Source: Candidatus Heimdallarchaeota archaeon
GTDB lineage: Archaea > Asgardarchaeota > Heimdallarchaeia > Heimdallarchaeales > Heimdallarchaeaceae
Reading direction: 5' to 3'
Assembly (NCBI GenBank): GCA_030668875.1
Contig: DAOVER010000005.1
Span: forward strand, 26,597 to 90,596
DNA: 64,000 bases
A program made the translations under genes and the position numbers. The notes under the pieces are model-generated. The model ran no database searches and was not told the DNA's origin. It saw nothing but the letters and a program-made list of their open reading frames with translations. Positions 2,559 to 61,719 of the stretch are shown here, piece by piece (position 1 is the stretch's first letter; each line of letters starts with the position of its first letter).

Positions 2559-3911
2559 CTATTTTTTAATTTTCTTAATATATCTCCTATAACCATCTAA
2601 TGTGTCTTCAATTCTTAGAACATGTTTTTCTGCCTTAATTCTGAGTTCTTGCCATTCATCTTCATCAATCTTTTCAGAATTCAACGCTTGTTCGAGTTGT
2701 TGAATGCGTTCCAAGGCTTTTTGTCTCTTCGATTCTAAATGGGTGATAATATTCTGTATATCTTCAGATTGTACAGGAGATTTCTCCGTTTCACCTGATT
2801 CTGCTTCAATCATTTTTGTTAGAGCGGATTTTTCTTCTGGTTCAATATCTTTTTCCTCGGAAACATGAGCTATTGTTCTTTTGATAGATGAAACGAATTG
2901 TGCAGCATCTTCTTCTTCCGGTGCGGAAAGAACGCCACCTAAACGCGACACTGAAGCTCTAAAAGCATGTACTTCTTCCAGTTCTTCGTCTGTAAGTCCT
3001 TCATCAATTATCATTTCTTGTTCTGTCACAGAGGGGGAGTCATCGCCTAAGGTCAGTAATTTTTCAGTCAATGGTGATATTACGGAATCGTCCCCAGGAT
3101 CTAGGGCTGTTAAGAGACTAGCCAGTTTCTTTAGAGATTCTTGCTCAGATTCCAGAGTTTGTATAAATGGTTCTTGTTTGAATTCATACTGGGAAGCCAG
3201 TTCTATTCCTTCAATCAATTCTTTCGCGTCTGATGAAACATCTTCCTTTTCCTTAATTACAATTTCACCCTTCACTTCTGGCTCAGTTTCTATTTCAGTA
3301 GTATCAAGCTCCTCATCCGCATCTTCTTCTTTCATTTCTTCATCGAAAATCTCAATTTCAGATGGGATTACTTTTATTTCTTCTTCCTTTTCTTTATCAT
3401 CAATTTCAGGAATAACTTCAACTTTTTCAACTTCTTTCTCTGTTACTGTTTCCTCTTCGATGACTTCACCTTTTGGCAATTTTGATGTTTTTGACTTGAT
3501 TTTCTTTATTTCTTCATTTAAAGAATGGAAACTCAATTCCAAAGACTCAAGTTTCGCATTCAAATATTGGAGTGCATCATTATCAACAGCTGCAGATCGT
3601 TGATATTCAATCTGCAACATATTAGCATGAGTTATGACATTGTAAACTGTATCTGTCATTTCAGGTAATTCGCGGAACCAAGGCCCTGCACTATCAAATT
3701 TTAGTAATACATCCTTTGCTTTTTGAAAATGTTTCTCATATTCTTCTTGTTGTTCAAGGGGCAGAAATGATTTTGCAAAAGAGGTTAAAGTTGCAAGATT
3801 TGTTATCAAGTGTGCTTTGACGTTTTCTTCCTCATCAGGATTGTATTCCCCCTTCAGGACACCCCAAAACATCTTTTTTATTTCTTCAATGGCTTCTTCA
3901 AGATTCATCAT
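2559..3911 (-). CDS. hypothetical, highly acidic coiled-coil protein (450 aa)
   Basis: Long ORF with E/D/K-rich low-complexity central region and heptad-like termini. Its start overlaps the stop of the upstream gene at 3911. Confidence 0.6.
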   Translation of the reverse strand: MMNLEEAIEEIKKMFWGVLKGEYNPDEEENVKAHLITNLATLTSFAKSFLPLEQQEEYEKHFQKAKDVLLKFDSAGPWFRELPEMTDTVYNVITHANMLQIEYQRSAAVDNDALQYLNAKLESLELSFHSLNEEIKKIKSKTSKLPKGEVIEEETVTEKEVEKVEVIPEIDDKEKEEEIKVIPSEIEIFDEEMKEEDADEELDTTEIETEPEVKGEIVIKEKEDVSSDAKELIEGIELASQYEFKQEPFIQTLESEQESLKKLASLLTALDPGDDSVISPLTEKLLTLGDDSPSVTEQEMIIDEGLTDEELEEVHAFRASVSRLGGVLSAPEEEDAAQFVSSIKRTIAHVSEEKDIEPEEKSALTKMIEAESGETEKSPVQSEDIQNIITHLESKRQKALERIQQLEQALNSEKIDEDEWQELRIKAEKHVLRIEDTLDGYRRYIKKIKK

Positions 3912-5629: not shown

Positions 5630-8368
5630 ATGAATTCCAATCTTACTAAATTTCTATCTGAAAATTCAAAAAAAGACAACCCGAATATTCAGAATCAGAC
5701 TAATAAAGTTAATAATAGTAATTTTCCAGATGATGAAGAGGATAATCATATGTTTATTGCAAATCATGGAAAACAAACTCTTGAGGATAAAGGGAAGGAT
5801 TACATTCAAATTGCCCCTGACAACCTACCACCTTCAATTCTAATAGACGTAAAATATGATGGTAAGAATGAGCAAGCATATGCTAAATTGTTCAATCTTG
5901 AGGATGGAAGAGTTTACCGTTGGTATGACAATACAAACCATCTACCGTATCTATTAACAACTTTAAGCAAAACTCAAGTTGAAGCTCAATTAAAAAATGA
6001 GAAGGAATTCATAGGTTGTGAGATAGTAAAGAGACATAATTTGTTAAATGATAAAACCATAAATTTAACTAAGGTTCTAGCAACTAATCCTTTAGCAATT
6101 GGTGGTAAAAACAACAGTTACAGAGACCAACTGTCTCCCTCTTTTGAGTCCAATATTCGCTACCATCTTAACTATATTTATGACCGCCATTTAGTTCCAG
6201 GTACCTATTATAAAATTCAAAACGGGGAGTTGATAAGTGAGGAACCTACAATTAGTTTAGAAGTACAAGAAGGTATTCTTGAAATTTTTAAGGGACAATC
6301 ACAAGAAATTGCGAGATTAGTTAAACAAAACATGCCTCTATTCTTTGCACCTATTCCTAATATCAAACGTTGTTCTGTTGATATTGAACTTCATAGTGAA
6401 CCAAACAAAATCCCCGACCCAAATGCAGCGATTGAAAAGGTAATCTCAATAGGAATTTCAGATACTGATGGGGATACTTGTGTTTATGTGCTTAATGAAG
6501 AAGGTAAGCAAATTGACAAAATTAAAGCAATTAGTAAGTTCATTGAATTCAAGGACGAAGCTGAATTGCTTAAAGCAGTTTTCAAAAAAATTGGAGAATA
6601 TCCGGTTGTTATTACATTCAATGGAGACAATTTCGACTTTCTATATTTGGATAATAGAGCAAAAAAATTAAAAATAGAAGAAACTCTGATTCCTTTCATC
6701 AGAACAAGGACTCAAGACATCTATCTTTCTCATGCAGTTCATATTGATTTGTATCGATTCTTCAGACAACCAGCCATGAGAATTTACGCATTTGGGGGGG
6801 CTTATGAAAGAGTCACCCTAAACGAGCTAGGAAAATCACTTCTTGACAAAGAAAAAGTGAAACTAGATAAAAACATTTGGGATTTAGATTTAGAAGATTT
6901 AATTACATATAATGCACAAGACGCAGAAATAACTCTTGAATTAACTACATTTAGTAATAATCAAGCAATAGAACTCATATTTATGCTGTCCAGAATCACA
7001 AAGATGCCAATAGATGATTTCACAAGATCAAGTGTAAGCATTTGGATTCAGAACTGGATGTACTTTGAACACAGACTCCTAAATTATCTAATCCCAAGAA
7101 AGCAAGATATTCTACAACTGAAAGGTGATACATCTACGGAAGCAATTATCAAAGGTAAAAAGTATCAAGGAGCGATTGTAATCGAACCGCAAGTGGGTGT
7201 ATGGTGGAATGTCTCTGTTTTAGATTTTGCATCACTTTATCCTTCAATTATTAAAACTCGTAATCTATCATATGAAACAATCAATTGTACCCATGCAGAA
7301 TGTAAAGGGAATAAAATTCCTGAGACAAGTCATTGGGTATGTAGCAAGAAGGCAGGTATAAGTTCCATGCTTGTTGGATTTATAAGAGATATTCGTGTTT
7401 ATTGGTTTAAAGATCGAGCAAAAGACCCAAGTTTAAGTGAAAGTGAGAGAAATCAAAGCAATGTGATTCAATCTTCATTAAAAGTTCTTCTCAACGCCTC
7501 ATATGGCGTATTTGGTTCGGATAATTTCGCCCTTTACTGTCCACCTGTAGCAGAATCAACTGCGGCTATAGCCAGAGAAGCTATTTCAAAAACCAAACAG
7601 TACTGTGAACAGAAATTAGGTTTAAAAGTTCTTTATGGCGATACTGACAGTATCTTTGTGCTTAAACCAACGGAAGATAACATAAAAGAACTAGAAAATT
7701 GGAGTATGAAAACTTTTCAAATTGAATTGGGAACAGATTATGTCTTTAGATACTGTGGTCTTTCAGATAGAAAAAAGAATTATTTTGGCATCACAACTAC
7801 AGGAAAACCCATAGTGAAAGGTTTAATGGGTAAAAAGAAAAATACGCCTATTCTTGCTAAACGCCCCTTTGAAAAGGCTCTAGAGATATTATCTGAGGTT
7901 CAGAATCCTGAGGAATTAGAGGTTGCTAAGAAACAAATCATAAAGATAACTAAGAAAGTTGTTCAAGAGATATCGAAGAGAGAATTTAATCTTGAGGATC
8001 TTGCTATCACTGTAACACTATCAAAAAAACTTGAACAATACGATAGTTGGACTCAACCTTTGCAAACAGCCATTCAGTTAATTGTCGCATTTCCAGAAGG
8101 TGAAAGACCATCAGTTGGGAGTTTTGTTAGTTTCATCAAAACCAAACCATTTAAAATTCAAGCAAATGACGTAAAACTGTCTGATAAAATTAACAAGAGT
8201 AGTGAGTGTTCAGTTAAGCCACTTCAATTAGCTAAGAAAATAGATGTAGATATACCTAAAATTAAAGAACTACTCAAAACAACATTAGTACAATTGTTTG
8301 ACACCATTGGAATTTCATGGGATGAGTCTGTCGAAGGACAAAAATCATTAGATAATTGGTTCAAATAG
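5630..8368 (+). CDS. polB: family B DNA polymerase
   Basis: Exonuclease motifs: VDIEL (ExoI), NGDNFDFLYL (ExoII) and YNAQDAEITLEL (ExoIII). Polymerase motifs: DFASLYPSII (A), KVLLNASYGVFG (B) and YGDTDS (C). Confidence 0.95.
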   Translation: MNSNLTKFLSENSKKDNPNIQNQTNKVNNSNFPDDEEDNHMFIANHGKQTLEDKGKDYIQIAPDNLPPSILIDVKYDGKNEQAYAKLFNLEDGRVYRWYDNTNHLPYLLTTLSKTQVEAQLKNEKEFIGCEIVKRHNLLNDKTINLTKVLATNPLAIGGKNNSYRDQLSPSFESNIRYHLNYIYDRHLVPGTYYKIQNGELISEEPTISLEVQEGILEIFKGQSQEIARLVKQNMPLFFAPIPNIKRCSVDIELHSEPNKIPDPNAAIEKVISIGISDTDGDTCVYVLNEEGKQIDKIKAISKFIEFKDEAELLKAVFKKIGEYPVVITFNGDNFDFLYLDNRAKKLKIEETLIPFIRTRTQDIYLSHAVHIDLYRFFRQPAMRIYAFGGAYERVTLNELGKSLLDKEKVKLDKNIWDLDLEDLITYNAQDAEITLELTTFSNNQAIELIFMLSRITKMPIDDFTRSSVSIWIQNWMYFEHRLLNYLIPRKQDILQLKGDTSTEAIIKGKKYQGAIVIEPQVGVWWNVSVLDFASLYPSIIKTRNLSYETINCTHAECKGNKIPETSHWVCSKKAGISSMLVGFIRDIRVYWFKDRAKDPSLSESERNQSNVIQSSLKVLLNASYGVFGSDNFALYCPPVAESTAAIAREAISKTKQYCEQKLGLKVLYGDTDSIFVLKPTEDNIKELENWSMKTFQIELGTDYVFRYCGLSDRKKNYFGITTTGKPIVKGLMGKKKNTPILAKRPFEKALEILSEVQNPEELEVAKKQIIKITKKVVQEISKREFNLEDLAITVTLSKKLEQYDSWTQPLQTAIQLIVAFPEGERPSVGSFVSFIKTKPFKIQANDVKLSDKINKSSECSVKPLQLAKKIDVDIPKIKELLKTTLVQLFDTIGISWDESVEGQKSLDNWFK

Positions 8369-34421: not shown

Positions 34422-36215
34422 ATGGGGTACGAAGCAGTCACTTTTCTATTATTTGCCGCTTATTTGCCGCTTGTTTGGATTCCAATCCGTTTAGCAATCA
34501 AGAAACAAACAGGATACAAAATCGCTCCTGTAGTTCTTGCTCTCTTTCTGATGAGTGTATGGATAGTCGGTTTTATCGGTCGAACAATATTAGTTACAGC
34601 TGTTGAGCATTTAATTTTCGCAGGATCGCTCTCTATTATAGCAGTAATTGTCTTCGAGATAGTTCGAGGTAAAACTAGGTTTCTTAGGAAATTCAAGACA
34701 AGAAGACGTTTGACAGGACTTATCATAATTGTTCTTATCATTGTTGTTGGTGGGAATTCATTATTGGGTATAAACAAAACCATGCAAAGTGCAAGATATT
34801 TTGAGAATATGGTAACCTATGATTCTACCAATTTGCCATTTATTGTTCTTGATGAAGTAAATGAGATAGATAAGAATATGCGACTTGTTACTAAAGAATT
34901 TGCAATAAGCAAAGCAGAACAAAACAAGGCAGTTTTTGGTTCTAACGCTGAATTAATGGAAGCTAATGTCATACTGGTTAACGATTCTATTTACTGGTGT
35001 ATGATTTACGCACCTAAAAGTTCAGCACAATTCTGGACTCCAGGACAATTTAACCATGCTTGGGGATTGATATTGGTTGAAGTTAACAACCCAAACGCTG
35101 AACCTGTAACAATTAATTTTCCAGAAGGAGAGTTTAATTATGCTGATGGTTTATGGCGCAACCACGATATTGTTCTTAAGAATTACCGCCGGGACCAAGG
35201 AGCAAAATACTGGCGTTCATATCCAGCTTGGACAGGTACTGAATGGGTTTACGTTGTTACTCGAACTACAAGAGATGTTTATGGAGCATGGTATTCCGAT
35301 GGGATAGACATTCTTGATATTAAAACAGGCGGTTTAATCACGCATTATACAGCTGAGGAATTAGACACAACCCCCAACTATATCATGCAGATTTATTCTG
35401 AAAGATTGGTTGAAGAAAAATGGATCTGGAACTGGGGTGATAAGAGAGATACGACAGCAGAAGGCAACATACGTTTCTTTAGTGGTTTTCCATATTATAG
35501 TTCAGATAGGATTGGTTTTTATGGAGACGGAGTTGAAGATATCCGTTATGTGAAATATCAAAATTCTACAATAGCTTTCTTTGCCACACATCCTTTTGAT
35601 TCTTCAGAGACTCTCGCAGGTATTGGTGTAATGACAAAAAATGATGTTACGTTTTATGACCTTAGAAAACGAGGATTCATTTCAGCTAATACAGCAGCTA
35701 CGCTAGCTGAGGGGCAGCTTACTGCACCAAATGAAGGTGGTTACATTGTTCAAATGCCAGTACCATATACACTTAACACTTCTATCGGATTGAGATTATC
35801 TTGGTTCATACCCATCTATTGGCAAAGTGGCGCCATACAAAGATTATCTCACGTCTGTGTTATTGATGCCTTAGACTCAAGTTATGTAGCTATAGCTGAA
35901 GCAGAGGGACTATCGGGTTCTCAAGTAGTAAAAGAAGCACGCTTACAATTCAAGTCCTTTTTCACAAGTGAAATTGTCGAAGACCAATATGAAATTGCAC
36001 AAATAGAAGATGTTGGAAGCTACGTAGAAAATGGCGATAGTATTTTTGTTTATCAATTGAATGATAGTCGAACAATACGTTGTTCACAAGATTATCTGAA
36101 TGCAACTCATTGGAATCAAGTTGTTCTAGCGGATATAGGAGACGATATACGATATACATTCACTGAAGATGACGAAGGAATATTTTGGGCAACAGAGTTC
36201 TTTATTTTAACTTAA
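34422..36215 (+). CDS. membrane-anchored protein with a large extracytoplasmic domain (597 aa), function unknown
   Basis: About four N-terminal hydrophobic helices, then a W/Y/G-rich soluble region. No motif recognised. Confidence 0.55.
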   Translation: MGYEAVTFLLFAAYLPLVWIPIRLAIKKQTGYKIAPVVLALFLMSVWIVGFIGRTILVTAVEHLIFAGSLSIIAVIVFEIVRGKTRFLRKFKTRRRLTGLIIIVLIIVVGGNSLLGINKTMQSARYFENMVTYDSTNLPFIVLDEVNEIDKNMRLVTKEFAISKAEQNKAVFGSNAELMEANVILVNDSIYWCMIYAPKSSAQFWTPGQFNHAWGLILVEVNNPNAEPVTINFPEGEFNYADGLWRNHDIVLKNYRRDQGAKYWRSYPAWTGTEWVYVVTRTTRDVYGAWYSDGIDILDIKTGGLITHYTAEELDTTPNYIMQIYSERLVEEKWIWNWGDKRDTTAEGNIRFFSGFPYYSSDRIGFYGDGVEDIRYVKYQNSTIAFFATHPFDSSETLAGIGVMTKNDVTFYDLRKRGFISANTAATLAEGQLTAPNEGGYIVQMPVPYTLNTSIGLRLSWFIPIYWQSGAIQRLSHVCVIDALDSSYVAIAEAEGLSGSQVVKEARLQFKSFFTSEIVEDQYEIAQIEDVGSYVENGDSIFVYQLNDSRTIRCSQDYLNATHWNQVVLADIGDDIRYTFTEDDEGIFWATEFFILT

Positions 36216-38121: not shown

Positions 38122-38212
38122 AAGTATGATTATAATAATGTTATTAATCTATCAAAATCATCTGATTTGTTAACCAGAAGTCTTTTTAGATAACGCTATT
38201 TGTGTTGTAACA

Positions 38213-38833
38213 ATGAAAGTCTTTATTCTAATAGGGTTGCAAATAAGTGGCAAATCATCTCATGGCTATAGATTAAGAGAAGAAGAAGGAATACCAATGG
38301 TAGAGACCGGGCACGCGGTTTATCATGAGCTGAAACGATTGAATTTAGAAGTTAATCATGAGAATAGTAGCAAAGTTATAATTGGTTTGTTAGCCCAAGA
38401 CCCTACAGCTTTTACTCGTACAATACTAGATTATGAAAAAAAAACCTATGAGGGAGCTAAGTGTCTTATTTTAAATGGCGTAAAATCACCAGCAGAAGTT
38501 GAGTATACACAGAGTCGATTCGGTAAAGAGAACGTAACAGTCTTTGGATTTCATTGCAGTCAACAGACACGTTTTAGCAGAGTAACTAACCCTGATAGGT
38601 TCGAGGTATCGGGTCAATTTCACGAAAAAACACAAGAAGATCAAGATTTGGCAAAATGGGAGAACTTCAAGAGTAGAGATTTAAGAGAGATTGGCTTAGG
38701 GATAGGAAATGCTCTCGCTTTTGCGAATGAAATAATCTGTACAGAGGATAATTTTTGGCCATATAATTCATTTGAGAGTTCATATAAACAGTTTCATAAG
38801 CATATTTTTGATAGACTAACAAAGTCTACTTAG
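38213..38833 (+). CDS. P-loop kinase-like protein (UPF0200/dephospho-CoA-kinase-like)
   Basis: N-terminal ILIGLQISGKSS P-loop variant. Size and layout resemble archaeal UPF0200 proteins (weak). Confidence 0.35.
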   Translation: MKVFILIGLQISGKSSHGYRLREEEGIPMVETGHAVYHELKRLNLEVNHENSSKVIIGLLAQDPTAFTRTILDYEKKTYEGAKCLILNGVKSPAEVEYTQSRFGKENVTVFGFHCSQQTRFSRVTNPDRFEVSGQFHEKTQEDQDLAKWENFKSRDLREIGLGIGNALAFANEIICTEDNFWPYNSFESSYKQFHKHIFDRLTKST

Positions 38834-38854: not shown

Positions 38855-41389
38855 CTATTTTTTTGGAGAGCTTGGATAAGTTCCGATTGGCATTAGCACT
38901 CGCTTTACACTAGAGACTATACCGTGTTCCTTTTCAGGAAGAGTTATTGCATCAATCTGTGCTTCACCTAATGCAACCAATTCATTCTTCAAGGTATAAA
39001 TCGCTACCATGTCGCCTGCTTTGAATTCTTCTGAATACCTTGAAACACCTGGTAAAGCTAATGGGGCACCATGACAGATAGTATTAACCGCACTGTCTTT
39101 GATAATAACTTGTGGTATATGTCTCACCCCATATTCCATAGGTAGAATAATGTTTCGTAAGGGATTTTCATCTTTTTCTTCTCTATACCATGCAAAAGCA
39201 TCATATAAATCATGGAGAGTGGATAAGAAATCATTTTCCGAAAATGGTCCAGAGCGCGTTCGTCTAAGTTCCTTCATATGAGCGCCACACGATAAACTTT
39301 GTCCAATATCATGGCAATTAGAAGACACAAAACCTGTTTCAATGAGAAAATTATGAGTTTTTGGTACAGTCATATCATAAACATAACCAGTACTTTGGAC
39401 ATTCTCAATTGATTCTATTTTTTCAATAATGAAATCATCCAGTTCTGGTAACATTATGTGTGTAGAAGCAGTTTTGTAGAACCCTCGCGTCATAGGGATA
39501 TTTTCTTTTAAAATTCTATCCAAATTTCCACCCATTATTTTTTTCAATTCTGTTTTATGGGAAATTAAATAATTCGCAAAATGAAAACCAATATGATATT
39601 TATCTCCATATTCATGATCAGAATTCAGTTCTTCGAACTCAGTGAATTTTCTGATTTTCTCTGGATGGTTAGAACCAATTTCATTGATGAATTTCAACTC
39701 TGCACCTATCGTACCAACAGACACTATATACATTGTAGTGATATAATTCTTAAAATTAACTTCTCTTGAAAAAATAGTATTTTCAATTTCTAATTTAAGT
39801 AGTAATTTATGAAGTATTATTGCTTCACTTCTGTTAACCGTGTATAAAGAAATACGAGATTTAACACTATGAGAATATGTTTTTATTTGTACAGACCCAT
39901 CCCCATCAAAATAACCTCGTAAGTAGGAACAAATCAATTTAGGTTCAAGTTGGAGCAAAGGAGAAAAATCAGCATTCTTTTTTGGGCTTCTTATTCCTAA
40001 AGATGCTGCTATAGTAGCAAGAAGAGAGTTTGTAAGAGATACACCCCAAACACCATTTTTATCTTGATTAACCGAATAATGTGAATTTGGGAATAATTCT
40101 TTGTAAATTTCAACATACTTATCAATTAGTTCCTTATTTGTATTATTAAAAATTAATCTTGTATAACGTACTGTATTTTTCTCTTTTGAATTATTTCCAT
40201 CTGAAGCAATTAATCCTAAAAGATAAAATAAAGATTCATTTAGCTCTCTTAGCTTAATGATTTGACCTTTTACTTGCTTAAATCTATAAATTTGTTCTTT
40301 AACATCTTCATATATTCCAGCTAGTTTAAGATGTTTTATTTTTATCGAGTAAGAAGAGTTTGAAACAAATGGCTGCCTACTAACATCTAGTTTTCTGCTC
40401 ATTTCTCTAATACTACCATATTTTTTAATGAAGGCGTTTTTACATTTTTCCTTTATTTCATCTTGTTCTATAAGGTACTCATCATCCAAAAGATCTGACA
40501 CAATTAGTTTTTTACTAGTTAAGTTTGGTTTAAAACTTTTAACTAAAAAATCACCAACTCTTAATTTTCTAGCTTCAGTCATATTATAACCAACATCTGT
40601 AGATTTCAACATTTCATGGTCTGGTGTAATAATTATTGAAATACCAGTTTTCATTTTTAGTTTAATTAAAACTGGAGGGGAAGGGATGGTTTGAACTGCA
40701 GATGGATCTTTTTGATCTATTTTTCCATCAACAAAAGAAAAGATTGTTTTTGGACTTTCAACGAAATCTTTAGCTGAAACTGATCCTTCAGCTGTAAGAA
40801 TCTGAGTATTAGGATGTAAACAATATTTTCTAACATAAAATCCTGCTTGAGAGCTTATCCTAAAAAGAACTTCTCTTTCCCTTATATCAAGAATCTCTGA
40901 ATTATAGATGGTTCGAATTCTTAATACTCTTTTTACACTTGCCCTTAATGGGGGTCTTTGATACAAATCACCAACATAATCACCAACAATAGATCTTATT
41001 CTTTCTTCATCAATATCGGCGTGTAATCGCATATTTCCAACGTATTCCTTTCCAGCGAGGAGAAGTGTATCCAATATTCGAGTTGCTTTTCCTAAAGCCG
41101 TAGGAAGAACACCGGTTACCTGTGGGTCCAAGGTTCCAGAATGACCCGCTTTTGGAATGCCAAGAATCTTTTTTACATAACTAACTACTTCATGGCTAGT
41201 TGGATTAGGAGGTTTGTCCAAGTTGATGATACCATAATTCAATAATTCTGCAATTGTTCGATTTGAAGGCTTTTTTCCCCATTTAAAATCAGTTGTATCT
41301 CTGGAAAGTATCTTTAAGGGGTACTTATTGTCATCAAATGATAACTTTGGGGTGGAAAAAACTAATGTCATGATATCATCACGGAGCAC
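38855..41389 (-). CDS. cbf5: H/ACA RNP pseudouridine synthase Cbf5 (TruB family) interrupted by an intein
   Basis: The exteins carry GHSGTLDPQVTGVLP (catalytic Asp motif), YQRPPLRASVKR, AGFYVRKY|CHDIG..GAHMKELRRTRSG and a PUA-like C-terminus. The exteins sum to 342 aa. Confidence 0.9.
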   Translation of the reverse strand: MLRDDIMTLVFSTPKLSFDDNKYPLKILSRDTTDFKWGKKPSNRTIAELLNYGIINLDKPPNPTSHEVVSYVKKILGIPKAGHSGTLDPQVTGVLPTALGKATRILDTLLLAGKEYVGNMRLHADIDEERIRSIVGDYVGDLYQRPPLRASVKRVLRIRTIYNSEILDIREREVLFRISSQAGFYVRKYCLHPNTQILTAEGSVSAKDFVESPKTIFSFVDGKIDQKDPSAVQTIPSPPVLIKLKMKTGISIIITPDHEMLKSTDVGYNMTEARKLRVGDFLVKSFKPNLTSKKLIVSDLLDDEYLIEQDEIKEKCKNAFIKKYGSIREMSRKLDVSRQPFVSNSSYSIKIKHLKLAGIYEDVKEQIYRFKQVKGQIIKLRELNESLFYLLGLIASDGNNSKEKNTVRYTRLIFNNTNKELIDKYVEIYKELFPNSHYSVNQDKNGVWGVSLTNSLLATIAASLGIRSPKKNADFSPLLQLEPKLICSYLRGYFDGDGSVQIKTYSHSVKSRISLYTVNRSEAIILHKLLLKLEIENTIFSREVNFKNYITTMYIVSVGTIGAELKFINEIGSNHPEKIRKFTEFEELNSDHEYGDKYHIGFHFANYLISHKTELKKIMGGNLDRILKENIPMTRGFYKTASTHIMLPELDDFIIEKIESIENVQSTGYVYDMTVPKTHNFLIETGFVSSNCHDIGQSLSCGAHMKELRRTRSGPFSENDFLSTLHDLYDAFAWYREEKDENPLRNIILPMEYGVRHIPQVIIKDSAVNTICHGAPLALPGVSRYSEEFKAGDMVAIYTLKNELVALGEAQIDAITLPEKEHGIVSSVKRVLMPIGTYPSSPKK
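39317..40822 (-). mobile_element. 502-aa intein with a LAGLIDADG homing endonuclease domain inside cbf5
   Basis: Starts at Cys (CLHPNTQILTAEG). Block B is IITPDHEML. The LAGLIDADG motifs are LLGLIASDGN and YLRGYFDGDGSV. Ends ...NFLIETGFVSSN, followed by the +1 Cys of CHDIG. Confidence 0.85.
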
Positions 41390-58823: not shown

Positions 58824-59261
58824 ATGCCTCCTTCCAATGATTCTGAAGAACAAGTTAAAATTGGTGCAGATTTGTTATTGAAGGGTTGGGTGATGCTCAA
58901 TCGCGCATGTCCTACCTGTTATTTACCACTTTACAAAAAACAAGATAGAGTAGTTTGTGTGAAATGTAAGCAAGATTATGTTTTAGTTGATTCACCCTCG
59001 GAAATACCACAACAACAGAGAAATAATGCTCAACAGAAAGTGATCTCAGCTCCATATAGTAATTCTTCACCCCAATCCAATCTATCTTCACTTGACTTTT
59101 CGTCACTCCCTCCAGCATTGGTTGATACAGCTAAAATCTTACTTGAGAAAATAGAAATGCTCAATGTCCAATTAAAGGAAACAACTGATCCTAAAGAAAT
59201 CACGGATATTTCTAACTCTATTCGTTCTCTTGTTGATTCTATTCGTTCTCTGACTTCTTAG
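58824..59261 (+). CDS. zinc-ribbon protein of the SSSCA1/autoantigen-p27 (archaeal UPF0148) family
   Basis: GADLLLKGWVMLNRACPTCYLPLYKKQDRVVCVKCKQDY. The start is set to the ATG at 58824; the ORF track starts at 58740. Confidence 0.55.
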   Translation: MPPSNDSEEQVKIGADLLLKGWVMLNRACPTCYLPLYKKQDRVVCVKCKQDYVLVDSPSEIPQQQRNNAQQKVISAPYSNSSPQSNLSSLDFSSLPPALVDTAKILLEKIEMLNVQLKETTDPKEITDISNSIRSLVDSIRSLTS

Positions 59262-61719
59262 AATCTTGTTGAGGTTCAGGCCTTAGACTATCCAACTCCT
59301 CTTTTATTCCACTTAATTCTTTCTCTGCAGTTAGTTCATTATAATCAGCATAGATAAAATCGATAATGTCAGAAGCAATTTTTTCTCCTACTCCTCTTAT
59401 CTCAAAGAAATCTTCTCTGTTTGCAGTTACAATTCCTCTGAACGACCCAAAGTGTTTCAGTAATCGTCGAGAGATTTTATGCTCAATGTGAGGTAGTGCA
59501 GAAACTGCTTCTTCTAGTTGGATTTGTAATCCCAAGCCCTTTCTTTTACCGATAGATAATCTTCTTTTTCTTTCAACTTGTTCTCTTTTTGCAAAAGCAT
59601 ATAGCATTTCAGCTGTTTCTCTTTGATTCTTCGTATGGATTATAGGAATTCGAAAATCAGTAATCAAAGAGGTTAGTGCTCCAGATAAAGCATGAGGATG
59701 CAAGGTTGAACCATGAAGATTAAACTCTCCTTCAATTAATATAACTGGTTTAGCACAATTTTCTACAAGGATTTTTGTTTGAGAGAATAAACGTTTATCC
59801 ATAATAGATTTAACAAAATCATCTTGTGTCTTTCGCTCTACTATAACTTGGTCTGAACAGATATAATCGCCAATTTCTAATCTTTCGAAACCAAGGACAA
59901 CATCTTTTCTCATTAATTCTTTAATAACTGTAGAGTTCCTTTCCCTACTATCACAAATTATTTTTATTTCCCCTTCATCTGCTAATTCTTTGCTCTCATC
60001 AACGTTCTCGTCTTCAATAACTGACAGTGCTTCTACCGCTTCCTCTTTTTCTTCAATTTCTGTTTTTTTGGATGATTCTGTTTCCGCTTCTTTCAGAAAA
60101 TCAAGAATGCCTTTTTGTTGCTCCTTTTTCTTCATGGCTTTTACTGAGGGTGATTTTTCTAATTGTTTCACAATTTTCTTCATTTTCTGAGCCTGTCTCT
60201 TCGACGCCCACATATAAGCTACATCCCTAGTTCCTTCAGCTATCAACATTATTACCTTGCCCTCCTTTCTTCTACCTGTACGACCTTTTCTCTGAATCAA
60301 TCGTATAGCACTAGGAACGGCATCATAAAAAATAACAAGCTCACATTCACCAATATCTAATCCTTCTTCGGCAACACTTGTTGAAACAAGAACATTGTAT
60401 GTTCCATCACGGAATTCTTGCATAATTTCGATCTGTTTTTTCTGAGATAGCCCTTTTTCACCTTTCATTGATGATTGACCCACAAACCAGTGCGCATTTA
60501 TTCCTTCAATTTTATTTATTTCTTTACTGATTATTTTGGCAGCGACTCTGAAATGGGAGAAGATGAGTATTCTATTGTTAGCATTGTTTTCTACTTCTTC
60601 TTGGACTATTTCTTTCAATCGCTCTACTTTGGGATGAATTACCTTTTCCTCTTGTAATATGTGAACAGCTTCAACAACTTTTCTCATTTCATCAGAAAAC
60701 ATCATGTTCTTTAGAGCTCGACTCCCTCTTCCAAACTTAATTTCATTAATATGACCTTCTAGATATTTATTAAGGGAAGGAACACCTTGAGTCTCTATTA
60801 ATTCAATGGCGTGAGATATCCTAATCGAGTTCCCAACAAGAGCCATTGCTTTAAAAAAATCTGTTCTATCTTCATCAGGAGAACTAGAAAATTTCTCATT
60901 TACTCTTCCCCGTAATTTCAATAATTCTCGTCTAGGATTATTTCTAGGAACTGCTGAGTTAATAATGCCGAGCTCCTTTAATCCTTCTAAGATAATTTTA
61001 AAGAAGTCATTTAGTGTCGAGATTATCACACTAAATGCTTCAGAAAGAGGGATGATTTCCCAATTTTCTTGAATCTCGTGGATATATTGTTTAACATCAT
61101 CAGAGCTTTCATCTCTCATTTCCACATTGAAAGCCTTCAAATTTTCTTGTACCTCTTCAATCCTTTCAATATTAGCTCCTGGACTTGCAGTGATGCCAAG
61201 CAGAAGAGGATTTTTTGCCTTCAAGTTATATTGTTCAGCAATGAAAACGTAACTATGGTCACCAACAGCCTTATGAGCTTCATCTAGGCACATAAAAACG
61301 AAATCTTCAAGTTTTACTCTACGTTGGATGATATCGTTTTGAATAGTTTGAGGTGTACAGATGAATACTTGTCCCTCTTCCCAGATTTGTTTTCTTGTAC
61401 TGGGATCAGTTTGACCAGAGATTTGTATGATTTTATCTGAATCAATATTTAAAGAAGATCTAGTAGTTTGTTCATGTTGTTCAAGTAGTGGTTTAGTTGG
61501 AGCGCAAAATACAATTTTTCCCTCGGGAAATTTCTGAATGCGATGTGCAGCAATCATGATAAAAAGGATTGTTTTACCCAAACCCGTTGGTAAAATAACC
61601 AAAGAATTTTCCTTAACGCATGAAGCAAATAATGTCTGCTGGTACAATCTCGCTTCAATTTTATCAGGTTTAATCAGAGGATGGTTAATATATTCTGCTT
61701 GATCCATTGGAAACCACAA
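59239..61719 (-). CDS. hef: Hef (FANCM/XPF-family) helicase-nuclease
   Basis: Helicase motifs PTGLGKT, CLDEAHKAVG, ITASPG and RKGRTGR. ERCC4 nuclease motifs DSRE...GDY...VERKTQDDF. C-terminal (HhH)2 with RGVGEKIA. Confidence 0.9.
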   Translation of the reverse strand: MWFPMDQAEYINHPLIKPDKIEARLYQQTLFASCVKENSLVILPTGLGKTILFIMIAAHRIQKFPEGKIVFCAPTKPLLEQHEQTTRSSLNIDSDKIIQISGQTDPSTRKQIWEEGQVFICTPQTIQNDIIQRRVKLEDFVFMCLDEAHKAVGDHSYVFIAEQYNLKAKNPLLLGITASPGANIERIEEVQENLKAFNVEMRDESSDDVKQYIHEIQENWEIIPLSEAFSVIISTLNDFFKIILEGLKELGIINSAVPRNNPRRELLKLRGRVNEKFSSSPDEDRTDFFKAMALVGNSIRISHAIELIETQGVPSLNKYLEGHINEIKFGRGSRALKNMMFSDEMRKVVEAVHILQEEKVIHPKVERLKEIVQEEVENNANNRILIFSHFRVAAKIISKEINKIEGINAHWFVGQSSMKGEKGLSQKKQIEIMQEFRDGTYNVLVSTSVAEEGLDIGECELVIFYDAVPSAIRLIQRKGRTGRRKEGKVIMLIAEGTRDVAYMWASKRQAQKMKKIVKQLEKSPSVKAMKKKEQQKGILDFLKEAETESSKKTEIEEKEEAVEALSVIEDENVDESKELADEGEIKIICDSRERNSTVIKELMRKDVVLGFERLEIGDYICSDQVIVERKTQDDFVKSIMDKRLFSQTKILVENCAKPVILIEGEFNLHGSTLHPHALSGALTSLITDFRIPIIHTKNQRETAEMLYAFAKREQVERKRRLSIGKRKGLGLQIQLEEAVSALPHIEHKISRRLLKHFGSFRGIVTANREDFFEIRGVGEKIASDIIDFIYADYNELTAEKELSGIKEELDSLRPEPQQDSKKSENE

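Follow-up and report, generated by a model that had tools for sequence, protein, structure and literature searches.

The window analysed here, a 64-kb stretch (64,000 nucleotides) of DNA from a Candidatus Heimdallarchaeota archaeon, carries on its minus strand a cbf5 gene that is interrupted in frame by a 502-codon insert. Judged by its domains and family scores, the host protein is Cbf5, which serves as catalytic subunit in the H/ACA pseudouridylation complex of archaea. The insert can be taken with near certainty as a canonical class 1 intein with a double-motif LAGLIDADG endonuclease, because Pfam and NCBIfam models score above their cut-offs and because its AlphaFold model matches solved intein endonucleases. 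An initial annotation had placed a 502-amino-acid (aa) intein at 39317-40822, within an 844-aa open reading frame (ORF) containing a 342-aa Cbf5. Translation and the location of the junction show the coordinates to be exact to the base, and the identities of intein and host hold in both profile databases. The 844-aa ORF exists as the maximal reading frame, but the best gene model has 838 aa (336 + 502).

The interrupted cbf5 gene

The maximal ORF spans 38855..41389 (minus strand), with a GTG at 41389 as its upstream end. Translation of cbf5 probably starts at the ATG at 41371, which encodes Met7 of the maximal ORF, because the 100% identical protein P0001 has 838 aa and intein-free homologues have 336 aa. 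Host residue numbers follow the 838-aa model and coincide with Pyrococcus Cbf5 numbering. The features of the gene are listed below, in which 80/80 refers to the complete inteins of the family described in the next section.

38855..41371, minus strand: cbf5 precursor coding sequence, 838 aa plus stop, assigned from the identity with P0001 (838 aa) and the Cbf5 equivalog scores
40823..41371, minus strand: N-extein, Cbf5 residues 1-183, with DKCLD, TruB_N and catalytic Asp82
41126..41128, minus strand: catalytic Asp82 in GTLDP, within the N-extein
40829..40843, minus strand: active-site motif G177-F-Y179-V-R181, aligned with E. coli TruB G177/Y179/R181
39317..40822, minus strand: intein, 1506 nucleotides (nt), 502 aa from Cys1 to Asn502, residues 190-691 of the 844-aa ORF
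40784..40822, minus strand: block A, N-terminal splice junction CLHPNTQILTAEG, with Cys1 as the nucleophile (80/80); intein_Nterm starts here
40616..40627, minus strand: block B TPDH, intein residues 66-69, with Thr66 and His69 (conserved in 80/80)
40247..40507, minus strand: helical linker domain, intein residues 106-192, with the helix-turn-helix (HTH)-like stretch GSIREMSRKLDVSRQPF and AlphaFold helices at 108-177
39608..40246, minus strand: LAGLIDADG endonuclease domain, intein residues ~193-405, supported by Pfam, structure matches, conservation and the comparison of nonsynonymous and synonymous differences per site (pN/pS)
40193..40222, minus strand: LAGLIDADG motif 1, LLGLIASDGN, intein residues 201-210, with Asp208
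39890..39925, minus strand: LAGLIDADG motif 2, YLRGYFDGDGSV (YLRGYFDGD308G), intein residues 300-311, with Asp308
39317..39388, minus strand: blocks F and G, C-terminal splicing region GYVYDMTVPKTHNFLIETGFVSSN, with Asp483, His490, Ser501 and Asn502 (all 80/80); covered by intein_Cterm
39314..39316, minus strand: +1 Cys, first residue of the C-extein, placed by alignment with intein-free Cbf5
38855..39316, minus strand: C-extein, residues 184-336 of spliced Cbf5, with TruB_C_2 and PUA; stop codon included

The host protein contains the Pfam domains DKCLD, TruB_N, TruB_C_2 and PUA, and the intein domains fall between TruB_N and TruB_C_2. It is recognized by both Cbf5 equivalog models of NCBIfam (NF003280, 399.5 bits against a cut-off of 242; TIGR00425, 398.3 bits against 238), and the spliced sequence aligns without gaps over residues 26-332 to the Cbf5 structures of P. 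furiosus and P. abyssi (E~1e-103). Asp82, Tyr179 and Arg181, as well as Gly177, stay invariant when E. coli TruB is included in the alignment; Arg181 has been described as the active-site base, in a salt bridge to the catalytic Asp (PMC3973310). The intein is inserted between Tyr183 and Cys184, two residues past Arg181. Since it directly follows K182-Y183, it splits the catalytic cleft in the precursor, and activity would be expected only after splicing. The +1 Cys belongs to the host motif itself, which reads GTYxRKLC in intein-free proteins. No second copy of Cbf5 was found by tblastn in the 64-kb window.

The insert runs from CLHPNTQ to GFVSSN, preceded by AGFYVRKY and followed by CHDIGQSL; its C-terminal end is THNFLIETGFVSSN. 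The split of the host motif proposed by the initial annotation (AGFYVRKY / CHDIGQSL) is borne out by translation and by alignment with intein-free proteins, and its reading of the insert (Cys start, TPDH block B, two LAGLIDADG motifs, SSN followed by Cys, and Ser as the penultimate residue) is confirmed throughout. Pfam detects Intein_splicing at 59 bits (E=5.9e-16) and LAGLIDADG_3 at 50.7 bits (cut-off 22.5; E=2.3e-13). The NCBIfam model intein_Nterm (TIGR01445, 34.1 bits against 24.5) begins exactly at Cys1, while intein_Cterm (TIGR01443, 26.9 bits against 15.6) ends at the +1 Cys. Asp483 and His490 are assigned to block F by motif only, without exact Perler numbering. The usual but non-obligatory penultimate His (block G position 6) is replaced by Ser501.

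An AlphaFold model built with eight family members as input (mean predicted local distance difference test score 85.7, predicted template modelling score 0.87) has a beta-rich N-lobe (intein residues 1-96), a helical module with the HTH-like stretch (108-177), two alpha/beta half-domains (~196-400) whose first helices are the LAGLIDADG motifs, a second helical module (414-453), and the C-terminal splicing strands (464-502). The helical linker, which gives weak HTH/NUMOD1 matches in Pfam (E~0.1), is probably an accessory DNA-binding module. In a Foldseek search of the PDB, the top matches to the model are solved inteins with the HINT fold (E 1.9e-20 to 1e-9), the best being TliVMA (7QSS), followed by PI-PkoII (2CW7), PI-PfuI (1DQ3) and PI-SceI. 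Free-standing LAGLIDADG enzymes such as I-DmoI rank after these intein-endonucleases. The pseudo-dimeric alpha/beta endonuclease fold is recovered through matches to I-DmoI, I-Tsp061I and the endonuclease domain of PI-PfuI.

The atypical C-terminus led us to consider a class 3 intein, which is ruled out since Cys1 is present and invariant, and the insert is therefore class 1. Nothing RNA-based is involved: an Rfam scan of the window gave no family at gathering score, and no tRNA, rRNA or known small RNA, even though the window holds a cluster of ribosomal-protein genes and SecY. Pfam searches of the other large ORFs of the window revealed no second intein. Polymerases are the commonest intein hosts; in the window, the family B DNA polymerase (5630-8368, plus strand) and a Hef-like helicase-nuclease (DEAD/Helicase_C/ERCC4/HhH; 59239-61719, minus strand) are both intein-free.

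The empty site and the Cbf5 intein family

Searching with the spliced extein retrieved intein-free Cbf5 proteins of 336 aa at 92-93% extein identity (P0266-P0269). One of these is encoded in locus L083 (GCA_018238545.1, contig JABCTC010000042.1), which has the gene order of the window: SecY, methyltransferase, EMC3/TMCO1-like protein, L34e, cytidylate kinase, 93-aa ORF, Cbf5, 206-aa ORF, HAD hydrolase, PfkB and 597-aa ORF. The L083 cbf5 gene is 1011 nt long, which is the length of the window gene minus 39317..40822, with 88.9% nucleotide identity; the 30 aa around the junction are identical, and the uninterrupted junction reads GCAGGATTTTATGTGAGAAAGTAT/TGTCACGATATTGGACAAAG (here and below, a slash marks the junction). 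In a blastn comparison the two loci are 87-90% identical, and the alignment breaks at window positions 40820/39318. The equal length and the exact break thus define a clean 1506-bp insertion, the sole length difference within the gene. Alignment with intein-free orthologues accordingly places the boundaries exactly at Cys1 and at the Asn/Cys junction.

A second indel separates both genomes: L083 contains an additional ORF (5671-6419) between the 206-aa ORF and the HAD hydrolase, encoding a 237-aa Cys-rich, apparently membrane-bound protein that is absent from the window (~38198-38225). Three ORFs of the window have no Pfam match (34422-36215, plus strand, 597 aa; 2559-3911, minus strand, 450 aa; 38213-38833, plus strand, 206 aa). 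Those of 597 and 206 aa are real conserved genes, since their place beside cbf5 is kept in the loci L001, L083 and L086.

A full-length search detected ~110 clusters (grouped at 90% identity) of Cbf5 proteins of 800-870 aa that have these two domains in addition, and the allele is carried by about 19 GTDB species representatives from several phyla of archaea. The family includes sequences from Asgard archaea (Ca. Heimdallarchaeum endolithica, Hodarchaeota, Promethearchaeota), from DPANN archaea (Woesearchaeota, Nanoarchaeota), and from Bathyarchaeia and Hadarchaeota. Identity to named Heimdallarchaeota proteins is 68-72% for the window extein, and the intein shares 61% identity with its counterpart in Ca. 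H. endolithica; a Heimdallarchaeia-type Asgard archaeon is the most likely source. In automatic annotation such genes appear as 'LAGLIDADG family homing endonuclease' or as 'PUA domain-containing protein', so that a core ribosome-biogenesis gene is hidden.

In a MAFFT alignment the insert lies at the same point in every family sequence (GTYxRKx/C...SN/CxDxG). The intein begins with Cys in 108 sequences and, where the junction is present, ends in SSN (98), VSN (5), ISN (4) or TSN (1), in all cases x-Ser-Asn followed by Cys. Cys1, Thr66, His69, Asp483, His490, Ser501 and Asn502, together with the +1 Cys, are invariant in the 80 complete inteins, and so the essential splicing blocks carry no disabling substitution. 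Because Ser501 is invariant in so large a family, it is a fixed property of the lineage and does not represent damage. About 5% of functional inteins do without a His at the penultimate position (PMC4031507), and Ser501 therefore does not exclude the insert from the inteins.

Both catalytic Asp residues (Asp208 and Asp308) are kept in the window intein and in 74 of the 80 complete inteins. The remaining six (P0007, P0015, P0019, P0057, P0108 and P0110) have lost one or both, with all splicing residues kept, and look like endonuclease-decay stages of the same intein. They fit the established cycle in which an intein invades, becomes fixed, suffers decay of its endonuclease and is finally lost.

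Proposed splicing and homing, and competing explanations

The reading that we favour, and hold to be highly likely as a whole, is that of a standard class 1 LAGLIDADG intein in cbf5, which splices and yields a homing endonuclease. Translation would produce the 838-aa precursor with its catalytic cleft split. Cys1 would then form a thioester, which would be attacked by Cys+1, followed by cyclisation of Asn502 with the conserved Ser at the usual place of His (block-F His490 being a candidate for the role of that His), and an S-N shift would give the normal 336-aa Cbf5. The freed intein would be, now or recently, a site-specific DNA endonuclease that cuts intein-free cbf5 at the predicted target GGATTTTATGTGAGAAAGTAT/TGTCACGATATTGG, and repair of the cut allele would copy the intein in (homing). 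That the intein splices is held to be highly likely, and that the endonuclease is active today somewhat more likely than not.

Present or recent mobility is plausible, pointed to indirectly by the scattered occurrence among close relatives, by an intein better conserved than its extein between phyla, by purifying selection in the endonuclease domain and by the low GC content. Related genomes show both the empty site of L083 and a mosaic of the two states in the Heimdall-like clade, where the four nearest exteins (92-93% identity) are intein-free, the next (P0002, 88%) is intein-bearing, and both states are mixed at ~70% extein identity. The initial annotation had suggested a still-mobile element on account of its endonuclease motifs; both motifs are indeed intact and presence in relatives is patchy, with mobility itself rated as plausible.

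Within the Heimdall-like clade the intein diverges faster than its host (75% against 88%, and 60% against 70% identity, intein against extein). The order is reversed in comparisons with DPANN, Hod and Loki sequences, with 50-55% identity for the intein and 45-50% for the extein. The mismatch is clearest in a DPANN TruB-type group (P0087-P0093, P0090; locus L012) that lacks detectable DKCLD and PUA domains and has the intein at the same site, with 45-48% intein against 33-37% extein identity. The Bathyarchaeia/Hadarchaeota-type inteins are 23-35% identical at the same host distance. An intein more similar than its extein would be expected if it had passed between phyla after these had diverged.

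The endonuclease domain shows the mark of purifying selection, as pN is 0.128 and pS 0.619 between the window and P0002. The ratio of nonsynonymous to synonymous substitution rates (dN/dS) is ~0.11 for this domain and ~0.06 for the extein. The GC content of the intein is 29.2% (17% at third codon positions), compared with 37.5% (26%) for the extein; no other 1.5-kb stretch of the window is as rich in AT, and only 0.3% of sliding 1.5-kb windows are as low.

A trace of homing may be preserved beside the insertion point. The window and the intein-bearing locus L086 are identical over 41 nt across the junction (27 nt upstream and 14 nt downstream in gene orientation, noted at window 40796-40836), and in this tract four synonymous states (GTT, AAA, TGC, CAT) are common to the two, whereas L083, which is intein-free but closer overall, has others. 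Such sites make up 46 of the 214 informative sites gene-wide, which gives P~0.002 for four in a row, for a tract chosen after the fact. This hints at a short co-conversion tract and is suggestive rather than conclusive, because just four informative sites lie beside the junction.

Several points weigh against splicing with homing as set out above. Both activities are deduced from sequence, and the penultimate Ser is a minority state. The excess of intein over extein identity could be blurred by saturation; the dN/dS values are rough, because dS is saturated (>1) between the compared alleles; and low GC could come from relaxed constraint, not foreign origin. In the samples examined, intein-bearing and intein-free alleles were never seen together, and no viral or plasmid carrier was found, a scan of viral contigs with the intein alignment giving distant matches to the endonuclease domain only.

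The alternative that survives best, which we consider possible but rather unlikely, is that splicing is normal while the endonuclease is dead or no longer homing, the intein now being passed on vertically, late in the homing cycle and heading for decay or loss. The six inteins without one or both catalytic Asp, among them P0007 of the same clade, establish that endonuclease decay does occur in the family. The lack of samples with filled and empty alleles also fits, as does the 25% difference between the window and L086 inteins, from which it follows that the window copy is not a very recent arrival. Both LAGLIDADG motifs with their acidic residues are, however, intact in the window intein, and the low pN relative to pS in its endonuclease domain is not that of a decaying domain, which should drift as in P0007 (45% intein against 69% extein identity).

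Co-option as a conditional switch is quite improbable. Here splicing, and with it H/ACA pseudouridylation, would be held until a signal such as reduction of a Cys1-Cys+1 disulfide, with Ser tuning the rate of the last step. Such a role would agree with the invariant Cys at positions 1 and +1, the invariant penultimate Ser and an insertion that splits the catalytic motif, and conditional splicing has been discussed for other archaeal inteins (PMC4031507). Nothing in these data is specific to a switch, however. Cys1 and Cys+1 are common among ordinary inteins, and since close relatives live without the intein, no essential regulatory role has become fixed.

That the insert is a dead remnant, unable to splice and inactivating Cbf5 (a pseudogene), or else an assembly chimera, finds its sole support in the absent penultimate His, and is rejected as exceedingly improbable: the frame is open over 2.5 kb with all essential splicing residues kept, the extein is strongly constrained (the dN/dS given above), >100 family members have the same Ser, and independent assemblies of two sequencing runs and one NCBI contig contain this gene.

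Relation to known inteins

With the intein favoured above, cbf5 seems to become a new host gene, with a new insertion site, for elements of a familiar kind; the intein is already present in many public metagenome-assembled genomes (MAGs) and unremarked there. No paper on an intein in Cbf5, TruB, dyskerin or any pseudouridine synthase was found in the full-text literature, InBase and the supplements of a published intein survey (PMC4760082) lying outside that search. In the main text of the survey, whose visible archaeal host table runs from RFC-S to RadA, the terms Cbf5, TruB and pseudouridine are absent, and few inteins are reported there in the core machinery of transcription and translation. 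The NCBIfam matches listed include dedicated 'intein-containing' models of RtcB and of Tes, but no such model of Cbf5. The suggestion of the initial annotation that the insertion site may be rare thus stands as regards the literature but not as regards genomes, given the ~110 clusters and ~19 species representatives with this allele.

An RNA-modifying enzyme, the H/ACA catalytic subunit, thereby joins a list of intein hosts that is dominated, according to published surveys, by replication and repair proteins. The ~110 sequences with a fixed non-His penultimate residue provide a natural test set for Asn cyclisation without that His, and the filled and empty alleles in near-identical neighbourhoods, together with the similarity across phyla, offer a usable case for following intein flow among uncultured Asgard and DPANN archaea. 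The understanding of how inteins work is left unchanged.

Like the Cbf5 intein, the solved archaeal TliVMA and PhoVMA (7QSS, 7QST), PI-PkoII (2CW7), PI-PfuI (1DQ3) and yeast PI-SceI have a HINT domain split by a two-motif LAGLIDADG domain plus extra helical modules, and they have in common with it Cys1, TxxH, the C-terminal Asn and a +1 Cys/Ser/Thr. They differ in sequence (12-17% identity; best phmmer E=7e-5) and in their hosts (V-ATPase A, PolB and ribonucleotide reductase). As far as is known, the solved intein-endonucleases end in His-Asn.

The nearest relatives of the Cbf5 intein in other hosts have the same architecture, with 28-35% identity over most of the length. They occur in MCM, NuoD-like and NuoB-like proteins, thiamine pyrophosphate (TPP)/pyruvate-ferredoxin oxidoreductases, HdrA-like flavoproteins and a V/A-ATPase alpha/beta-family subunit. 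Several of them end in x-Ser-Asn/Cys, while more distant MCM inteins end in His-Asn, and the host proteins and sites differ from those of Cbf5. The closest non-Cbf5 relatives sit in energy-metabolism enzymes (HdrA/FlpD-like flavoprotein, NuoD-like, NuoB-like and TPP/pyruvate-ferredoxin oxidoreductases), not in replication proteins; this set comprises L021 (2821-7590), P0128, P0129, P0131, P0133, P0135, P0140, P0141 and P0149, several with penultimate Ser.

The V/A-type ATPase alpha/beta-family intein (L022-L028, e.g. L022 2269-5223 and L026 2179-5214) has 25-29% full-length identity to the Cbf5 intein and ends in x-Ser-Asn/Cys. Its insertion site is ILTDMTNY/C...SN/CEALREI, and it is found in bacteria (Acetothermia, Armatimonadetes, Rubrobacteraceae) and archaea (Woesearchaeota, unclassified MAGs). 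The host motif looks like that of subunit B, and not like the classical VMA site in subunit A.

A broader and more speculative proposal, which we regard as improbable, is that the Cbf5 intein belongs to a larger clade, so far undescribed, of LAGLIDADG inteins in which the Ser-Asn/Cys end is obligatory, residing in non-replication hosts (an RNA-modification enzyme, V/A-ATPase, NuoD-like, HdrA-like and TPP enzymes) and moved repeatedly between archaeal phyla, such as Asgard archaea and DPANN episymbionts. If this were true, the element could mark physical contact between lineages, or could be a tunable (slow or conditional) splicing switch on rRNA and tRNA pseudouridylation.

Functional inteins without the penultimate His (Chen, Benner & Perler 2000; the Ssp DnaE intein; via PMC4031507) likewise have a non-His residue before the terminal Asn, with the other catalytic residues kept. 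The Cbf5 inteins differ from them in that the substitute is Ser, which does not vary within the family or among the nearest relatives found in other hosts. With regard to the host, the closest parallels are the RtcB and aIF2 inteins listed in the survey (PMC4760082), which, as in Cbf5, combine an RNA-acting host with a conserved insertion site.

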